Source: Escherichia phage DCP548
Direction: 5' to 3' (one strand)
Sequence record: PQ671645.1
Length of the DNA stretch: 64,000 nucleotides
The stretch's first letter is position 1, and the number at the start of each line of letters is the position of its first letter. Made by a program: the position numbers and the translations under genes. Positions 7,534 to 59,883 of this stretch are shown piece by piece. The notes under the pieces are model-generated. The model ran no database searches, was not told the DNA's origin, and saw nothing but the letters and a program-made list of their open reading frames with translations.

Positions 7534-8082
7534 TTAACGAGCCCATTTGATAATTTCTGTAATCAAATTATTACGTTCGCTTGCATTAAATCCTATAACT
7601 TTGTTAGCACCATCATGATTAAGTAATTGATACGTTTGGATTTCGTTATGAATTGCAAACTCTTCAAAATATGAAATGACTGTATTAAAACCGAACGAAG
7701 ACAAAGTAATAAGGTCGTCTTCAAAACTTTCAGTCATTTCGTTACGTGTTAAAATAATTGTGAACACATCATGGTTTTGGCAAAGACGAACATAATCCTG
7801 TTCATAAACGTCAAGAACCGAGTCCGCATCTTGTCGAATACGTCCATAAACCCAGTTACTAATATATCCACGGTCTAACAGATAAATCTTAGTAGGGTCT
7901 AAATAATTCAACATCGTTTCGAAACAGCCAACTTCATTTCGAGACTTAACATCGAAACGTCCATCAACTGTTCGTTTAGGGAAATCAATCTTTACATATC
8001 TTTCACTAATTTCCATTATGTCATTAATGAAAGTTGTTTTACCAGCATTATCCGGGCCATCTACTAAAATAATTTTAGCCAT
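7534..8082 (-). CDS. P-loop kinase-like protein (dNMP/thymidylate-kinase-like fold)
   Basis: 182 aa; Walker A ILVDGPDNAGKTT and LLDRGYIS (DRY-like) motif; sits where T4 has beta-gt. Confidence 0.55.
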   Translation of the reverse strand: MAKIILVDGPDNAGKTTFINDIMEISERYVKIDFPKRTVDGRFDVKSRNEVGCFETMLNYLDPTKIYLLDRGYISNWVYGRIRQDADSVLDVYEQDYVRLCQNHDVFTIILTRNEMTESFEDDLITLSSFGFNTVISYFEEFAIHNEIQTYQLLNHDGANKVIGFNASERNNLITEIIKWAR

Positions 8083-8083
8083 T

Positions 8084-8983
8084 TTATTCCTCGATTACGA
8101 CATCTTCGTATTTAGGTATATTATACGGTGAAGAAATTAAAGCATTAAAGTAGATGAACTCACCAAGACCTGGATGGAATACTTCTTCAGGATTTTCGAA
8201 ATATTGAATCTTCGGACGTCCTTTAAGAATTTGATAGTACTCAGTTTTAGTTGGATTAAAAATTCGAATCAGCGCTTCTTCAGGATACTTATTTCTGTCG
8301 AAACTATTATTTGGATCAGTTATATAAAGCGGTTGACCTAATTGAATTGCGCATTCAACCACTTGTTCAAAACGATAGCATGGGTCACTAATTCGAAATG
8401 GATGAAAAATACCATCTAGATGAATAGGAGCCAAATCACCTACAAGACGCTGCATGACGGAAGGACGTATAACTTTCTGTGTTACGATAATCTTATTACC
8501 ATCCGCACCAGCGTTAACCAGCACTTCTTTTTGACGTTCATTCAACACAGTTGTTTGAAGTGAACGATTAACCGACAACATATCGGTTTTTAAGAATTCG
8601 TCAATATAAAAACGTGGTTTATTAGGGTCTGCGGTGATATTGAAATTGAATTCTACGTCAAAAGTGCCGTCATATCCAGTGATATCTGTGATTAGAAAAT
8701 CACAATCATAATAAGCAATTAATGAATCAACCACAAATTCATTTTCAGACCAGAAATATTTACGAGTGTTATACGCGTTATCTTTATACCATAATGGAAC
8801 AAACTTAAATTCCGGAAAAAGACGTTCACATTCTTTAATATCAGATGCATTACGTGGATATGTAATCACATCACCTGGATTAGCACGGTGCAAATGAAGT
8901 TGGAAGTTGCCATCCTTAAGGATAGCATACTGTCCAGTTTCATAAGACCGCATACTCAAGATAGGTACGCGGAAAATAGCCAT
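8084..8983 (-). CDS. hypothetical protein, candidate DNA sugar transferase (unsupported by motif)
   Basis: 299-aa ORF tightly coupled to gene 42 stop; no motif recognised; candidate role only by position in the glucosyltransferase slot. Confidence 0.45.
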   Translation of the reverse strand: MAIFRVPILSMRSYETGQYAILKDGNFQLHLHRANPGDVITYPRNASDIKECERLFPEFKFVPLWYKDNAYNTRKYFWSENEFVVDSLIAYYDCDFLITDITGYDGTFDVEFNFNITADPNKPRFYIDEFLKTDMLSVNRSLQTTVLNERQKEVLVNAGADGNKIIVTQKVIRPSVMQRLVGDLAPIHLDGIFHPFRISDPCYRFEQVVECAIQLGQPLYITDPNNSFDRNKYPEEALIRIFNPTKTEYYQILKGRPKIQYFENPEEVFHPGLGEFIYFNALISSPYNIPKYEDVVIEE

Positions 8984-9699
8984 TAGTCAAGGAATCCTTT
9001 AACATAATCAAAATCACGTTCAAACACATGGGCACTTACCATGGTATGAGTATAATCACCAACTTCTACACCGCATTCGTTAGCGATATAATGAAGTAAT
9101 TTTCCTTGGAGATAAAAATCCAACTGCATAACAACAGCACAGTTCTGAGAACGCATATGACAGTGGGTATAAAGCTTACCATCACGAATATAATAAGTCA
9201 CTGAGTCAGTACATGGATATTCAAGCGTTTCATCCGAATCAAGCAAAGCCTGATCTGAACTTTCAAGAATTTGAAACACAACTCTTCGTGAATTAGGTTT
9301 CTCTTTAAGTTCTTTGAGAAGAGCTGGTAACTGGGCCGCAATTCGTGGACCATAGAAAGTGTTGAAGTTCGCCGGCAAAACATCTGATTTTGGTTTAGAA
9401 ATAAATTTAGCGACATTAGGATACGCCTTAAACGCTTCTTCTGCGTTGGTACCACCAGAAATCATAAACTTCCAGAAATCTTCAGCATATTCATAAGAGA
9501 TGCGATTAATACGTGGGTCGGTCATTTTGAATGATGAAGGGGTATCAACAACTACTGTCATAGACCCAATTTCATTACAACGTCCAATACGAGAATCAGT
9601 TACGAATTCCGGGTTTTCTAAAATTTCACGATTGACAGCTTTAAATGCGGATTGAAAATCTGCGGCTTTAATATATTTCATTGTGTTATGTTTTCCCAT
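8983..9699 (-). CDS. 42: deoxycytidylate 5-hydroxymethyltransferase gp42 (thymidylate-synthase family)
   Basis: 238 aa; TS-family core RRVVFQ and catalytic Cys context YPCTDSVTYY; synteny. Confidence 0.8.
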   Translation of the reverse strand: MGKHNTMKYIKAADFQSAFKAVNREILENPEFVTDSRIGRCNEIGSMTVVVDTPSSFKMTDPRINRISYEYAEDFWKFMISGGTNAEEAFKAYPNVAKFISKPKSDVLPANFNTFYGPRIAAQLPALLKELKEKPNSRRVVFQILESSDQALLDSDETLEYPCTDSVTYYIRDGKLYTHCHMRSQNCAVVMQLDFYLQGKLLHYIANECGVEVGDYTHTMVSAHVFERDFDYVKGFLD

Positions 9700-9977: not shown

Positions 9978-11138
9978 TCATTCTGGGTACCTCAAAGCGT
10001 CGTCAGAGTTAGTTATATCAATAATAGATATAGAATTTTCTGATAACCCATTTTTAGATAACTGACGTTTATAATATCTTTCACAATATGTACACGTCGT
10101 CCCGCAGATTTCATTAGCACAATCGAAATCTGGATGTTTGAACCACCTTTTTTCTAAAAAGCCATCTAACAAAGAGGTTTCAATATTTACCGTATGTGAA
10201 AACTCGGTCTCATTTTCAAGAGTGAAAATGGTCTCTAAAGGCTTCCACAATTCCAACAAATTACCTTCAAATTTTTCAGAAGCATAAGCTTCAAGAACTT
10301 TCAAAATGTAGTCTGTGCTACCTGTACGTCCTGAAACTTTGAATTGAGTGATACCAATATCATTATAAAGTTTCAAATCTTGAGGACGAACAAAACGAGT
10401 TCTCAACCAGTTAAATGGGTCTGTATCACGAGCTTTAATACAGTGCTGCATAGGATATCCGTTTAAGGATTTAGCATCATCAGCTGTAACATCAGTACTA
10501 TGGAAAATATAGCAAGAGTCACGATAGCTACAATGTGTTGTATACCCTTTACCAGCATTAGAACAGAACTCATTTACAAGAACTTCAAATATTATATTGT
10601 TCTTATTACAAAACTCTGCTGCACGCTTCAGGAAAGAAACTGAACGGTTCTTATGAATTCCACAGCAGACCTTTTTGATATTATATTGGTCGTGCAAGTA
10701 TTTGATTTGAGTTACAGCATCGACATGTAGAATTGTTGAAACTTCAATCTCAATGTCTTTATTGACTTCACGAACAATTTCCATAACAACAGGGTTAGCG
10801 ATAGTAATACGCCATACGCCTATTGACCAAAGATACTGAACATAATCCTGAATAGCTTTCTTCTTCCACTCAACTAGTTCTCTTTTTGAACCAGGATTTA
10901 TCGTGTTGAGTGTATAGTTAAAGCAAATACCTAATTCGTTACAACGTTTAACGTAATCTTCTAACATCTTTTTGTCAACGTCAGGAAGCCTAAAATCAGG
11001 TCTGGCTGCTACAAAAGCCATTTCTCTTGTAGAGCCGTATACTTCATTTATCAAGCTATTAGGATAAGTTTTATTGAGCTCTACGATTTTATCAAGAAGA
11101 GCTAAATCAAAATTCGTTCCGATTTTAAAGGTATTCAT
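9978..11138 (-). CDS. Cys-rich enzyme of unknown function (possible Fe-S protein)
   Basis: 386 aa; C-terminal FDCANEICGTTCTYC (C-x4-C-x3-C-x2-C) plus EFCSNAGKGYTTHCSYRDSC; first gene downstream of the sugar-pathway genes. Confidence 0.5.
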   Translation of the reverse strand: MNTFKIGTNFDLALLDKIVELNKTYPNSLINEVYGSTREMAFVAARPDFRLPDVDKKMLEDYVKRCNELGICFNYTLNTINPGSKRELVEWKKKAIQDYVQYLWSIGVWRITIANPVVMEIVREVNKDIEIEVSTILHVDAVTQIKYLHDQYNIKKVCCGIHKNRSVSFLKRAAEFCNKNNIIFEVLVNEFCSNAGKGYTTHCSYRDSCYIFHSTDVTADDAKSLNGYPMQHCIKARDTDPFNWLRTRFVRPQDLKLYNDIGITQFKVSGRTGSTDYILKVLEAYASEKFEGNLLELWKPLETIFTLENETEFSHTVNIETSLLDGFLEKRWFKHPDFDCANEICGTTCTYCERYYKRQLSKNGLSENSISIIDITNSDDALRYPE

Positions 11139-11192: not shown

Positions 11193-11594
11193 TTATAGAT
11201 TCGGTTTATATGATTTAAATGTTTCGAATTCGCCTTTATTCATAAGAGCTTTGAATTCGTCAGGACGCATAGCTTTGTCGTCGATAATCCAATCATATAC
11301 TGGTTTATGTGTTAGCAAATTATGGTACTTCAAGCCAATGTTTGCCAAGTTCTGAATCAGACTTGGGAGAATGTCAATTGCTATACGGCCAGGACCTACT
11401 GACTTCATACCGCGAGCAGTGTAAAGCGTTATTGTATGCCCTGCATCATACAGGGCATTAATGGCAGACACCATTTCGACGTCTGGTTTGAAGTTCACGT
11501 AATCACGATTGTTATTCCACTCTGTTATACAATCATCGACATCAAAACAAAGATTAAGCATGTTTTCTACACGGTGCATTAGATTCGTTCCCAT
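11193..11594 (-). CDS. HAD-superfamily phosphatase, KdsC-like
   Basis: 133 aa; motif I FDVDDCI, later TARG and K...DD motifs. Confidence 0.6.
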   Translation of the reverse strand: MGTNLMHRVENMLNLCFDVDDCITEWNNNRDYVNFKPDVEMVSAINALYDAGHTITLYTARGMKSVGPGRIAIDILPSLIQNLANIGLKYHNLLTHKPVYDWIIDDKAMRPDEFKALMNKGEFETFKSYKPNL

Positions 11595-13264
11595 TGATGA
11601 GTGATATCGCCACCGATTGGACGATAGGAAACACCAGTTTCTTTATCAGTTAGTACCCATTTACCAGGATTTTTTGTAATCAGAGTAGCCGTTACAGGTT
11701 CTGCTACGTCATAACTAATAGAGCCGTCCTGAAGTACACGGCCCATGTTACGTAATTGCTTAGTCAGAAGTTCCATACCTTTATAATATGCGGCTACCGC
11801 TTTAAGTGGATTATTCTTGAAATAACCACCTAATGCAATCCAGATAATTGCCACTGCCAAATGATGATACTCGTTAAACGAACTCATCTTTCCATATTTG
11901 TAAACTAATGGATTGATGTTAATAGTCACATTACAAGTTGTTTCATCAATAGTAAATTGCCCCCAGGTCGGATTAGCATTGAATTCATCATAACCTGAAA
12001 CAGCATAAAGCACTTTAGCTTCATCATACAATTTTGGCCCATAAATCTTGGTTTCGCCAAAATATCCACGAGGGTCGATAAACTTGACTTCACCATTATC
12101 AGTAATCATAGTATTACTAAAGTTCGGGTCACCATGAATAACAGAGTACTGTCCCTGAGAACGGTTATGATAACGAATAAGGTGTTCTAAAGCTTGTTTC
12201 AGCATTGGCTTCAGACGCCCAATCTTAGTGTAGTTCACATGTGTGATTTTACCAAATGAATCAATCAATGGTTGAATACTTTCACAACGATCAATAACTT
12301 TCGTATAGAACTCTTTAGTGAAATCACGACGAACAGTTTCAGGACTTACAAAATAAGTGTCTGTGCTGAATTTCAGTGCGTCTAAAATTGCATCAACAAT
12401 TTGTGGACGAGCAAGACTTGATTTGGATTTAATATATTCAAATGCCGGCTTACCTTTAATGCGTTCCATTTCAAAGTTATTTTCATTAACAGAAACTAAC
12501 TGAGGAACTGAATCTGATTTCACTTTAAGATACCATGAAATCTCATCTTTCTGAAGAGCTCGGCCCTGTTCGGTTAATGCGAATTTAGTTACAGTTTCTT
12601 CACCGATTTCAACTGCATTAAAACTACGATTAAGTTCACGAACTTCATGAGCCTTTTCAAGTTTAGGCATATCACCTAAATCAATTAGATTCATAAGCTC
12701 TGATTTATTGAATGCGCTGCCGTAAAGGAATTCTACGAAATCACGTCCTTTGCAGTATTCATGAATTTCCTCATCAGTAGAACCCATATAGAATTCCCAG
12801 TCTTTGAACTGATAAATTCCTACAACATTACCACCTGTTGAACCTACGTTAGTGATATTTTCACCGTCGAAATTATATCGACATTCGTCACCCTTAACAT
12901 AGATTGCGTTAACATTCCAAGACCATGAACCAAAATCGGGAATAATATCACACCAGTTAACAATTACATTATGGCCGTCTAAATCTTTGTGCAATTTAGC
13001 AAGAGCATAAGCAGAACCATATGCTTCATCAACTGTACGAATAGTCACATTGAACCCTTCTTGCTCACAATAAGCTCGAACAGTTTCAGCAAATTTTGAA
13101 TGAACTACTACAATAATTTCGTCTGCGCCAAGGTCAGAATAAATTGTATACAAATTGCTCAGAATAGTGTCTTGTTTATAGTTAACAAGCACCTTAGGAA
13201 TATGATGCGTTATTGGATACAAACGAGTTGCCAGTCCAGCACCAAGAATAACAGCTTTTTTCAT
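11579..13264 (-). CDS. bifunctional sugar-1-phosphate nucleotidyltransferase / kinase (LicC-LicA-like fusion)
   Basis: 561 aa; N-terminal ILGAGLATRLYPIT...PK (GxGxRL nucleotidyltransferase signature); C-terminal HGDPNFSN and FIDPRG (Brenner and DFG-like kinase motifs). Confidence 0.65.
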   Translation of the reverse strand: MKKAVILGAGLATRLYPITHHIPKVLVNYKQDTILSNLYTIYSDLGADEIIVVVHSKFAETVRAYCEQEGFNVTIRTVDEAYGSAYALAKLHKDLDGHNVIVNWCDIIPDFGSWSWNVNAIYVKGDECRYNFDGENITNVGSTGGNVVGIYQFKDWEFYMGSTDEEIHEYCKGRDFVEFLYGSAFNKSELMNLIDLGDMPKLEKAHEVRELNRSFNAVEIGEETVTKFALTEQGRALQKDEISWYLKVKSDSVPQLVSVNENNFEMERIKGKPAFEYIKSKSSLARPQIVDAILDALKFSTDTYFVSPETVRRDFTKEFYTKVIDRCESIQPLIDSFGKITHVNYTKIGRLKPMLKQALEHLIRYHNRSQGQYSVIHGDPNFSNTMITDNGEVKFIDPRGYFGETKIYGPKLYDEAKVLYAVSGYDEFNANPTWGQFTIDETTCNVTININPLVYKYGKMSSFNEYHHLAVAIIWIALGGYFKNNPLKAVAAYYKGMELLTKQLRNMGRVLQDGSISYDVAEPVTATLITKNPGKWVLTDKETGVSYRPIGGDITHQWERI

Positions 13265-13305: not shown

Positions 13306-13449
13306 CTAGTTAAAGCATTCATACTTTGCTTGTAGTCCAATCATAATCCATCCAATTACAAGTGTTGGAATCATTACCGGAGCCGTTAAGCTCCAGTAGA
13401 TAGTCATGACAAGCATCAATAGTAAAAGTCCTATTGTTATTGCTTTCAT
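13306..13449 (-). CDS. small hydrophobic peptide (47 aa)
   Basis: Hand-found: ATG overlaps the isomerase stop (ATGA); MKAITIGLLLLMLVMTIYWSLTAPVMIPTLVIGWIMIGLQ...; below ORF-track size cut-off. Confidence 0.35.
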   Translation of the reverse strand: MKAITIGLLLLMLVMTIYWSLTAPVMIPTLVIGWIMIGLQAKYECFN

Positions 13450-14081
13450 TGTTCGCCTCGTAACATGGCACCTAGTGCACCGCCAGGGTGGAACTTAAGG
13501 AAATCATTAGAGGTAAATCCACGTTCAGACGAAAGGTTGATAGCAAACGTATCGATAAGCGCTAACAACAATGTAGTGGACATTGTCGGAGCTAAAGAGT
13601 TCTCGTCAACTTCTACAGCGATACCGGTACAGAACGTATAATCAAAAAGAGCTTCGTATTCTTGTGGAATGTCAGGGTTACAATGCAACAGAATCTGTTT
13701 GACGTTCGGACGAATCATTTTAAGATGCTTAGCCACGCCTATCATTTCTTCAGTTTTACCAGAACGACTAATATGAATCAACACATCATTAGGCGCAATG
13801 AATCCTGCATCACCGTGAGAATAATGCCCGGTGTTCAAGTACATACTCGGGATACCGAGTGAAGCAAATGTCTCAGAAGCTTTAGTTGCGATATTAGCGT
13901 TCTTACCAACACCTGTAATAATTACACGACTTTCATAATTACTAAGTCCAGGGCGTCGAAGAGTTTCTAGAATAGCATTATAACGAGCAGGGTTTTGACT
14001 AATTACTTTGGCCATAGCGGCCAAAGAAGAAGCTTGTTTTATGATTGCGTCAATAGCGATAGTAATAGGAGTAGTTTTCAT
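13446..14081 (-). CDS. SIS-domain sugar-phosphate isomerase, arabinose-5-phosphate isomerase-like (KdsD/GutQ)
   Basis: 211 aa; GVGKNANIATK SIS motif and C-terminal FHPGGALG characteristic of KdsD/GutQ. Confidence 0.7.
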   Translation of the reverse strand: MKTTPITIAIDAIIKQASSLAAMAKVISQNPARYNAILETLRRPGLSNYESRVIITGVGKNANIATKASETFASLGIPSMYLNTGHYSHGDAGFIAPNDVLIHISRSGKTEEMIGVAKHLKMIRPNVKQILLHCNPDIPQEYEALFDYTFCTGIAVEVDENSLAPTMSTTLLLALIDTFAINLSSERGFTSNDFLKFHPGGALGAMLRGEQ

Positions 14082-58659: not shown

Positions 58660-59052
58660 TTATTTTGGCATATCATCAATTTGCTCTCGACGCCGACGCC
58701 ATAGATTAATCGCTTCATAAACACATTCTGCGTTTGGTATATGACGGCAATAATATAATGATTCGCGTTTCTGGAACCGATGTTGTAATGGAATTTCGTT
58801 TAAAAGGTCTTTACGATCAAAGTATTCAAAACTAGTTAACCCAGAACGATTTTTAAGGAACTTCCAATGGCCAAATTCATTTTGGAAATAAACGTAATCA
58901 GCGTGTTGATATAACGAATTAATCAACCGGTCGGAAATAACTGTATCCTGTTCATTAAAATAAAACGTTAAATCATGAACTACCAGATAAATATTACCTT
59001 TCATATTTTCCTCACTTAAAGTTGGTCGAGACAGAAGGATTCTAACCTTCAC
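58660..59052 (-). CDS. hypothetical protein
   Basis: 130-aa minus ORF next to the homing-endonuclease-like gene. Confidence 0.4.
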   Translation of the reverse strand: MKVRILLSRPTLSEENMKGNIYLVVHDLTFYFNEQDTVISDRLINSLYQHADYVYFQNEFGHWKFLKNRSGLTSFEYFDRKDLLNEIPLQHRFQKRESLYYCRHIPNAECVYEAINLWRRRREQIDDMPK

Positions 59053-59083
59053 CTTTAACCTTAGAATGATTATATGCTATCCA

Positions 59084-59752
59084 TTACACTATAGAAGCAA
59101 TTAAATTGTTTACTTTATCATCTTTATAAACTTCAGAATAGTGGAGTTCATAAATTTCCCAGCCCAGGGATTTTATAATATCATGTCTTTCCTGATAATA
59201 TGGGGCCAGAATTTTCTTGTTATGATCGGAGTAATGTTGGTTACCGTTAACTTCAATAATTATTTTCTTATCCATCAAAGCAATGTCACAGGAATATGCT
59301 CTATTTTTAACAGGTTGATATTCCTCAACAAATTGTATATTTGCTTCTATTAATTTATTTTTCAAAAATTCGCACGGAACAGATTTGAATTTTGAATTCT
59401 TTTTCCAAGGGTGTTTATCTGGATTTTCCTTTAACCAGGTCTTCCGGGCTGCTGATATCTTTTGTTTGGATTCAGACGAATGCTTTCGTCCTGTGCCTGC
59501 AGCAGACAATTTTTCTCTTGTTTCTTCAGAAACAACTAAAGAAATGCCCTTCTTTTTGGCAACCATGAATTGATTTAAATTACCAGATTCTTTGCGTGCT
59601 TTATTCATAGCAGCGACTGCATTTTTAGAACCCTCTTTATAAGAGGCGAGTTTTGGATTTTCAGAACACCATCTGGTATGACTTGCCATCCATCCCTTTG
59701 GTTTATCAGAAATATCAAATTCTTTATTGCAGTGTTTGCAGATGCTCATCAA
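59084..59752 (-). CDS. homing-endonuclease-like protein (zinc finger + NUMOD3-like repeats + DUF559/PD-(D/E)xK-like C-terminus)
   Basis: 222 aa; N-terminal CKHC...HTRWC; SEETREKLSAAGTGRK and SESKQKISAARK NUMOD3-like repeats; C-terminal YSCDIALMDKKIIIEVNGNQHY. Confidence 0.5.
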   Translation of the reverse strand: MMSICKHCNKEFDISDKPKGWMASHTRWCSENPKLASYKEGSKNAVAAMNKARKESGNLNQFMVAKKKGISLVVSEETREKLSAAGTGRKHSSESKQKISAARKTWLKENPDKHPWKKNSKFKSVPCEFLKNKLIEANIQFVEEYQPVKNRAYSCDIALMDKKIIIEVNGNQHYSDHNKKILAPYYQERHDIIKSLGWEIYELHYSEVYKDDKVNNLIASIV

Positions 59753-59808: not shown

Positions 59809-59883
59809 TGGTGACCCTGGCTGGTTTCGATCCAGCTACCTATCAGTTATGAGCTGACAGCTCTCCCATTGAGCTACAGGGCC
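59809..59883 (-). tRNA. tRNA, anticodon CAU (Met or Ile2), with encoded CCA
   Basis: Hand-folded cloverleaf on minus strand: acceptor GGCCCTG/CAGGGTC, D-arm GCTC-AATGGGA-GAGC, anticodon loop CTCATAA, T-arm GCTGG-ATCGAAA-CCAGC, 3' ACCA. Confidence 0.7.

Follow-up and report, generated by a model that had tools for sequence, protein, structure and literature searches.

The open reading frame (ORF) at positions 11579..13264 on the minus strand of a 64,000-nucleotide stretch from Escherichia phage DCP548 (PQ671645.1; this whole stretch is termed the window) encodes a protein of 561 residues plus a stop codon, in which a sugar-1-phosphate nucleotidyltransferase (NTase) domain is fused to a kinase domain. 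This fusion protein belongs to the AfhE family, as judged from its architecture, catalytic residues, orthology, partner phosphatase and 5-hydroxycytosine (5hoC) context. It is probably the Mosigvirus orthologue of AfhE that makes UDP-D-arabinofuranose (UDP-Araf) for the glycosylation of 5hoC in phage DNA; we give this assignment a probability of roughly 0.85. The gene is already known and has been described in the literature of 2025-2026, and an intact orthologue of it is confirmed here. The architecture, active sites, orthology, gene context and phosphatase pairing are results of the present analysis, while the substrates, the order of the steps and the use of UTP are taken second-hand from the literature.

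Domain structure and active sites of the fusion protein

The region 11579..13264 coincides with a single minus-strand ORF, which starts with ATG and is preceded by GAGG 8 nt upstream. The N-terminal domain (residues ~1-210; 12635..13264, minus strand) is an NTase domain of the RmlA/MurU/LicC type with a GAGLATRL P-loop, K24, D106 and D195/D198, and its GxGxR loop, catalytic lysine and metal-binding aspartates are intact. The C-terminal domain (residues ~211-507; 11744..12634, minus strand) is a kinase domain of the aminoglycoside phosphotransferase (APH)/choline kinase fold with K227, E241, HGDPNFSN (377-384) and IDPRG (396-400), and its HxDxxxxN catalytic motif and Mg-binding aspartate are likewise intact. 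It is followed by a beta-rich C-terminal tail of ~55 residues (508-561; 11582..11743, minus strand), which is defined by the secondary structure of the model described below (predicted local distance difference test score (pLDDT) 80-88). This tail is kept in the homologues from T4-like phages. The distant homologues, which cover just ~89% of the query, are without it.

The Pfam family NTP_transferase matches residues 3-99 with an E-value of 8.5e-10, above the gathering score. The Pfam kinase families Fructosamin_kin, EcKL and RIO1 match residues ~344-409 at sub-threshold scores only. A search of PDB sequences gives no structure of the fusion protein, the best match being LicC over the N-terminal ~95 residues only. 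The AlphaFold2 model of the fusion protein, built from an alignment of 44 sequences, has a mean pLDDT of 94.3 and a predicted template modelling score of 0.91. When the fold of this model is compared with known structures, the N-terminal domain matches LicC (20.8), RmlA (20.5), MurU (19.3) and HddC (17.9), and the C-terminal domain matches choline kinases (15.6), fructosamine-3-kinase (14.9), glucosamine kinase (14.5), LicA (14.3), maltokinase (13.8) and several APHs. Foldseek agrees with the fold assignments of both domains. The first-pass annotation had described this ORF as an NTase-kinase fusion with a LicC-LicA-like architecture. The fusion is borne out by an intact ORF of 561 residues in which both domains carry their catalytic residues, and the comparison with LicC and LicA is accurate at the level of the fold, both proteins being among the structural matches.

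In homologues of 28-75% identity, G10, R14, K24, D106, D195, D198 and K201 are invariant in the NTase domain, and K227, E241, H377-G-D379, N384 and D397 are invariant in the kinase domain. R213, R326, R399, K417 and K488 are also invariant in the kinase half. These basic residues may bind the phosphosugar.

Orthology with RB69 and the studied phages

The window belongs to the genus Mosigvirus (RB69/JS09-like) and is ~98% identical by megablast to Shigella phage SSE1, JS09 and many RB69-like phages. The fusion ORF is 99.5% and 99.7% identical to ORF053c (gp53) and ORF052c (gp52) of RB69, respectively. The RB69 reference sequence (NC_004928) has an additional C at alignment column 655, and its gene is split into gp53 and gp52 because of this single-nucleotide indel; the gene of the window is intact. 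Single full-length matches to the fusion are also found by tblastn in the other Mosigvirus records listed, and identity reaches 100% for the ORFs of phages PhAPEC2, F2, SF and JM17. The fusion ORF is 57% identical over its full length to gp82 of DLP3, and phrog_4098 matches it end to end with an E-value of 3.7e-295.

PMC13326640 treats RB69 gp52:53 as the counterpart of coliphage HY126 AfhE. Judging from protein sequences, the window phage is nearly identical to the phage used for structural work, because 9iqw is 100% identical to the small HAD protein of the window and 9iqc is identical to its ThyA-like protein at 234 of 238 positions. The public names lag behind, with the fusion listed as 'hypothetical protein', 'bifunctional protein GlmU' or 'nucleotidyl transferase' and the small HAD protein given as 'phosphoheptose isomerase' in RefSeq and in PHROG 1238. 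For a HAD phosphatase, the latter name is wrong.

Gene context, partner phosphatase and isomerase

The fusion ORF is surrounded by a T4-type replication module (gp41, uvsX, DNA polymerase gp43, regA, gp62/44 and gp45). Between gp43 and uvsX it forms part of a dense block of minus-strand genes, in which the genes for a SIS isomerase, a 47-residue ORF, the fusion, a small HAD protein, a U32 protein, a ThyA-like protein, a 299-residue protein and a thymidylate-kinase-like protein follow one another in this order.

The small HAD protein (11193..11579, minus strand; 128 residues from MHRVENM) is a capless phosphatase of the AfhF type. It matches PDB 9iqw_A and TIGR01689 (E-value 4e-13), a family of capsule-biosynthesis phosphatases. 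The longest ORF at this locus (11193..11594, minus strand) encodes 133 residues, and its residues 6-133 are 100% identical to 9iqw_A. Both the 9iqw construct and the RB69 annotation begin at MHRVENM (11579). The 133-residue ORF starting at 11594 is probably over-extended. The HAD gene lies directly downstream of the fusion, with its ATG overlapping the TAA of the fusion as TAATG, suggesting that the two genes may be translationally coupled.

The SIS-domain protein (13446..14081, minus strand) is an arabinose-5-phosphate isomerase of the KpsF/GutQ/KdsD type. It matches the Pfam family SIS, and kpsF (TIGR00393, E-value 2e-32) and KdsD are its closest profile matches (E-values 1e-30 to 2e-32). 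It is 99% identical to RB69 gp55 and matches PDB entries 3etn, 5uqi and 2xhz, of which 3etn and 2xhz are D-arabinose-5-phosphate (Ara5P) isomerases. A strongly hydrophobic ORF of 47 residues (MKAITIGLLLLMLVMTIYWSLTAPVMIPTLVIGWIMIGLQAKYECFN; 13306..13449, minus strand) is located between the isomerase gene and the fusion. Its ATG overlaps the stop codon of the isomerase gene (ATGA), and RB69 annotates a shorter version of 36 residues, ORF054c.

Proposed pathway

In the pathway proposed for the window phage, the SIS isomerase would convert ribulose-5-phosphate to Ara5P in step 1. The C-terminal kinase domain of the fusion protein would then phosphorylate C1 of this sugar with ATP to give arabinofuranose-1,5-bisphosphate in step 2, and the 5-phosphate would be taken off by the small, translationally coupled HAD phosphatase in step 3. 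In step 4, the N-terminal RmlA/MurU-type domain would join arabinose-1-phosphate (Ara-1-P) and UTP to give UDP-Araf and pyrophosphate. In step 5, GT-B arabinosyltransferases, one encoded at 8084..8983 and another encoded outside the cluster, would put the sugar onto 5hoC. The 5hoC would enter the DNA as 5-hydroxy-dCTP by way of the ThyA-like hydroxylase encoded at 8983..9699.

On the basis of He et al. (Nat Chem Biol 2026), PMC13326640 describes AfhE as a bifunctional D-arabinose-5-phosphate kinase/UDP-D-arabinose pyrophosphorylase. In this account, which refers to in vitro work on HY126, the AfhE kinase converts Ara5P to arabinose-1,5-bisphosphate (Ara-1,5-P2), and AfhF (equivalent to RB69 gp51) is a Mg2+-dependent phosphatase that converts Ara-1,5-P2 to Ara-1-P, the NTase step taking place only afterwards. 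UDP-D-arabinofuranose is given there as the product reported for HY126 AfhE. According to PMC13326640, cytosine in RB69 and Acinetobacter phage DLP3 is replaced by mono- to tri-arabinosylated 5hoC and not by hydroxymethylcytosine as earlier thought. The same paper attributes the 5-hydroxyl group to a homologue of thymidylate synthase that depends on flavin and O2 and has dCMP as its substrate. Mono- and di-arabinosyl-5hoC are detected in RB69 and Mosigvirus NP DNA by mass spectrometry and nuclear magnetic resonance. TH1_060 of phage Thanatos, which is 54% identical to the fusion protein, is essential for phage growth (PMC12838424). For TH1_060, the same study reports no UDP-xylose from xylose-1-phosphate with any NTP, and a product peak with TH1_063 only.

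Evaluation of alternative assignments

Several points weigh against the assignment of the fusion protein to this pathway. The activity of the window protein itself is assigned by orthology, and its identity to the assayed HY126 AfhE is gauged from the PDB matches of its neighbours (9iqw 100%, 9iqc 98.3%). The order of the steps depends on a second-hand account of the HY126 biochemistry and on circumstantial sequence evidence. In structure, the kinase domain is nearest to enzymes for which the substrates are unphosphorylated, namely choline, fructosamine, glucosamine, maltose and aminoglycosides. In Table 1 of PMC13326640, the kinase still carries the label 'phosphorylates Ara to Araf1p' and the HAD protein the label 'dephosphorylates Araf5p to Ara'; these older free-arabinose labels show that structure did not make the step order obvious.

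The last two points favour a salvage order, in which the HAD phosphatase frees D-arabinose from Ara5P, the kinase makes Ara-1-P and the NTase makes NDP-arabinose, possibly with channelling. This order, which the labels of Table 1 also follow, would fit the fold relatives of the kinase, among which kinases of unphosphorylated small molecules stand nearest, maltokinase and glucosamine kinase (anomeric or sugar kinases) being two of them. The fusion of two domains would make most sense if the steps that they catalyze are consecutive. However, the text of PMC13326640 gives Ara5P as the substrate of the kinase and Ara-1,5-P2 as that of the phosphatase. HldE and GmhB provide a precedent for a bifunctional kinase/NTase with an intervening phosphatase, so that a fusion need not mean consecutive steps, and several basic side chains that are invariant in the kinase domain would fit a phosphorylated substrate. 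The salvage order is unlikely, though not absurd. The first-pass annotation had favoured this order, from sugar through sugar-1-phosphate to NDP-sugar, with channelling from domain to domain. According to PMC13326640, the reported route is instead a de novo route from ribulose-5-phosphate by way of Ara-1,5-P2. Direct channelling is not implied, because the phosphatase acts between the kinase and NTase steps, and the intermediate must pass to the separate HAD protein before the NTase domain can use it. On a more tentative reading, the 55-residue C-terminal tail specific to T4-like phages might dock the AfhF phosphatase and thereby allow some channelling. The expectation that an activated pentose is formed with the help of the adjacent SIS isomerase and HAD phosphatase holds good, UDP-D-arabinofuranose being reported for AfhE in that paper.

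It is considerably less probable still that the window phage uses an enzyme of the same type for another sugar or nucleotide, such as another pentose or a GDP-, CDP- or dTDP-sugar. The NTase fold is silent on the base: no obvious counterpart of the base-contacting glutamine of RmlA/GlmU-type enzymes is found in the fusion protein, and the fold matches span UTP-, dTTP-, CTP- and GTP-dependent enzymes. UTP specificity is thus not derivable from the sequence of the fusion, which is a further point against the AfhE assignment, and the authors of the Thanatos study read their modification as a deoxypentose (PMC12838424). However, arabinose is found on 5hoC in the DNA of the Mosigvirus phages RB69 and NP by both spectroscopic methods, the second gene upstream of the fusion encodes an Ara5P isomerase, and the enzyme reported as a UDP-D-arabinose pyrophosphorylase in PMC13326640 is AfhE, the RB69 version of which is >99% identical to the fusion protein. 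A true phosphocholine activation of the LicA/LicC type, or an APH fused to an unrelated transferase, has hardly any probability. The fusion protein shares just 11-20% identity with such proteins, its gene lies in a T-even DNA-modification cluster between the DNA polymerase gene and uvsX, its neighbours encode an Ara5P isomerase, a sugar phosphatase, a 5-hydroxy-dCMP synthase and a glycosyltransferase, and PMC13326640 assigns the gene to arabinose activation. A specificity for choline or an aminoglycoside, which the first-pass annotation had named as the outcome that would speak against it, is not what is found. Readings of the fusion as a peptidoglycan-recycling enzyme (AmgK/MurU), a phosphocholine-activating enzyme (LicA/LicC) or GlmU are rejected because of context and low identity.

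Distribution of the fusion, phosphatase and isomerase

The fusion ORF is well beyond anything that chance would give. Full-length homologues of the fusion protein are found in 373 phage records, 363 of which cover at least 80% of the query, and the HAD phosphatase is found in 374. In the genera listed in both searches, the two counts are equal for Escherichia (176), Acinetobacter (57), Klebsiella (25), Shigella (15), Serratia (9), Enterobacter (9), Enterobacteria (8), Proteus (7) and Yersinia (6). The fusion gene is adjoined by the HAD gene, in this order, in four genera (Mosigvirus, Lazarusvirus, Marfavirus and Dhakavirus). This co-occurrence and gene order lend comparative support to steps 2 to 4 of the proposed pathway. 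The Ara5P isomerase is found in just 275 records and is absent from Klebsiella (Marfavirus), Proteus and Dhakavirus-type phages, such that ~100 phages carry the fusion and HAD genes without it. Thus, the fusion and the phosphatase appear to form an inseparable pair across 370-odd phage genomes, and the isomerase appears to be optional. Phages without the isomerase presumably draw Ara5P from their Gram-negative hosts, in which KdsD or GutQ could take over step 1. In Dhakavirus JS10, an unannotated ORF of 166 residues is located upstream of the fusion, and the Ara5P isomerase gene is absent.

Distant homologues in giant-virus-like and jumbo-phage contigs

Some distant homologues (~890-955 residues) contain HAD, SIS, NTase and kinase domains in one chain, and all catalytic residues are kept. 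In another form (~786 residues), the NTase and kinase domains are followed by a cupin domain, the catalytic residues are again kept, and the gene adjoins those for sugar epimerases and dehydratases. These single-chain and cupin-containing homologues (P0084, P0089, P0091, P0092 and P0106) are represented at positions 8001-10781 of contig L002, 8001-10862 of L013 and 8001-10361 of L014. The single-chain homologues lie beside genes for MutS and HNH, RNA polymerase Rpb2, RNA_pol_N or a PolB of 1553 residues. PIF1 and RING genes are also present on the contigs of these distant homologues, the context of which is giant-virus-like. One protein of the HAD-SIS-NTase-kinase type comes from a eukaryote transcriptome collection. 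The four-domain chains look like Rosetta-stone fusions of the phage trio and suggest that the pathway may also serve glycan synthesis in viruses of eukaryotes. A more specific proposal is tentative, and we consider it somewhat doubtful: the NTase-kinase core would have a role beyond phage DNA modification, in that viruses of eukaryotes would use one protein to build up NDP-D-arabinofuranose, or else a derived pentose, from ribulose-5-phosphate by a de novo route, presumably for virion glycans.

In a 350-kb jumbo-phage contig from JGI (L015, 5135-11689), genes for a SIS protein, a GT2 glycosyltransferase, an AfhE-like fusion (P0082, 35% identical), a HAD protein, a ThyA-like protein and a T4 EndoIV-like protein stand side by side, and a dCMP deaminase gene is located near these sugar-module genes. 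The module that puts sugar on cytosine therefore probably extends beyond Straboviridae.

Other genes of the cluster

The ThyA-like protein (8983..9699, minus strand) is a thymidylate-synthase homologue, to which the function of a flavin- and O2-dependent 5-hydroxy-dCMP synthase is given in PMC13326640. It is identical to PDB 9iqc at 234 of 238 positions (98.3%), is 98.7% identical to RB69 gp48, and also matches PDB 9ir2 and 9iqu. When its ...MRSQNC... stretch is read by eye, an asparagine seems to stand at the position of D169 of the E. coli enzyme. The protein of 299 residues encoded at 8084..8983 (minus strand) is putative DNA arabinosyltransferase 1, an orthologue of RB69 gp46:47 (PMC13326640, Table 1). 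It is 98-99% identical to RB69 gp47 and gp46 and gives neither a Pfam match nor a match in the PDB sequence search. Its gene is split into gp47 and gp46 in the RB69 reference, as is that of the fusion, and is intact in the window. The cluster ends with the gene for a thymidylate-kinase-like nucleotide kinase (7534..8082, minus strand), which matches phrog_761 with an E-value of 5e-45 and is 98.9% identical to RB69 gp45.

The U32-family Fe-S protein (RB69 gp50; 9978..11138, minus strand) matches the Pfam family Peptidase_U32 with an E-value of 7e-11. The 221 phage records with the U32 gene all show at least 80% identity, a conservation far above that of the fusion protein. The genera listed for the U32 gene do not include Acinetobacter, although the fusion occurs in 57 Acinetobacter phage records. 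The U32 protein contains ten invariant cysteines (C158, C177, C192, C203, C209, C233, C340, C345, C349 and C352), which include a mid-domain set and a C-terminal Cx4Cx3Cx2C motif. Its relatives with 50-58% identity are encoded in large phage contigs (L005, L006 and L008) amid genes for dCMP deaminase, Tmk, dNK, NT5C and DNA polymerase. The protein is labelled 'sugar or heterocycle reductase' in PMC13326640. The U32 proteins RlhA, TrhP and UbiU/V have been implicated in O2-independent, prephenate-dependent hydroxylation, including that of C5 of an rRNA cytidine (PMC5727448, PMC6599085, PMC10990095). By analogy, the phage U32 protein may be an O2-independent C5-hydroxylase of cytosine or dCMP, which would serve as a reserve for the O2-dependent ThyA-like enzyme under the anaerobic conditions of the gut. 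However, ~40 coliphage records contain the fusion without the U32 gene (176 as compared to 136 Escherichia records), which argues against this possibility. The U32 gene is absent from Dhakavirus JS10, the one coliphage inspected that has the fusion and lacks U32.

The scan of the window for promoter-like sites (22, as compared to 25.5 expected) and terminator-like sites (5, as compared to 3.7 expected) is uninformative. A tRNA-Met (CAT) gene at 59809..59883 (minus strand) is called by both ARAGORN and Rfam, and a second, weaker tRNA-like match at 59032..59093 (minus strand) is given by Rfam only (37.6 bits).

Significance

To our knowledge, a UDP-D-arabinofuranose pathway is not known in Enterobacteriaceae, and the fusion protein would catalyze its committed step. 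T-even-like phages coat every cytosine with arabinose and thereby escape restriction enzymes and CRISPR nucleases. The pathway is relevant to phage therapy, phage engineering and glyco-enzymology, and has already been published in 2025-2026. What is added here is an intact orthologue, the observation that annotation lags behind, the apparently inseparable pair of fusion and phosphatase with an optional isomerase, and the single-chain versions in giant-virus-like contigs.

Comparison with known systems

The fusion protein shares its two-domain architecture, its neighbours and its phage group with AfhE of HY126, RB69 gp52:53 and DLP3 gp82, and no substantive difference between them is evident. 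The system that is most similar in its logic is GmhA/HldE/GmhB for the synthesis of ADP-heptose in E. coli (HddA/GmhB/HddC for GDP-heptose), in which a phosphatase likewise acts between the two activities of a fusion protein. The kinase of HldE has a PfkB/ribokinase fold and its transferase has a cytidylyltransferase fold. In contrast, the phage fusion protein combines an APH/choline kinase fold with an RmlA/MurU fold, the order of its domains is reversed, and its substrate would be a pentofuranose instead of a heptose. Searches with Pfam and family profiles give no PfkB or cytidylyltransferase match to the fusion. The similarity between the two systems would thus represent a convergence of logic, and not membership in one family.

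AmgK-MurU, which functions in the recycling of N-acetylmuramic acid (MurNAc) in Pseudomonas, and LicA-LicC have folds that are homologous to those of the fusion protein, as both pairs consist of an APH-family kinase and a minimal RmlA-like NTase. MurU and LicC are top structural matches of the N-terminal domain, and the identity of the fusion protein is 20% to LicC and 11% to LicA. However, the two activities of AmgK-MurU and LicA-LicC are usually located on separate proteins and catalyze two consecutive steps on unphosphorylated MurNAc or N-acetylglucosamine, or on choline, without a phosphatase. These systems serve the recycling or decoration of the cell wall. The choline uptake and transfer genes of a lic-type context are not found around the fusion, the locus of which is a T-even DNA-modification cluster.

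FKP of Bacteroides and AFKP80 of Leishmania contain an N-terminal pyrophosphorylase and a C-terminal kinase in one chain, as does the fusion protein. FKP and AFKP80 make GDP-L-fucose and GDP-D-arabinopyranose, and AFKP80 activates D-arabinose. Their kinase has a GHMP fold, their substrates are free sugars, their products are GDP-pyranoses, and they have neither an isomerase nor a phosphatase as a partner. No GHMP family matches the fusion in the Pfam search, and the fold of its kinase is that of APH/choline kinase. FKP and AFKP80 represent the true salvage arrangement that the first-pass annotation had envisaged, and the phage protein resembles them only in being a pyrophosphorylase-kinase fusion.

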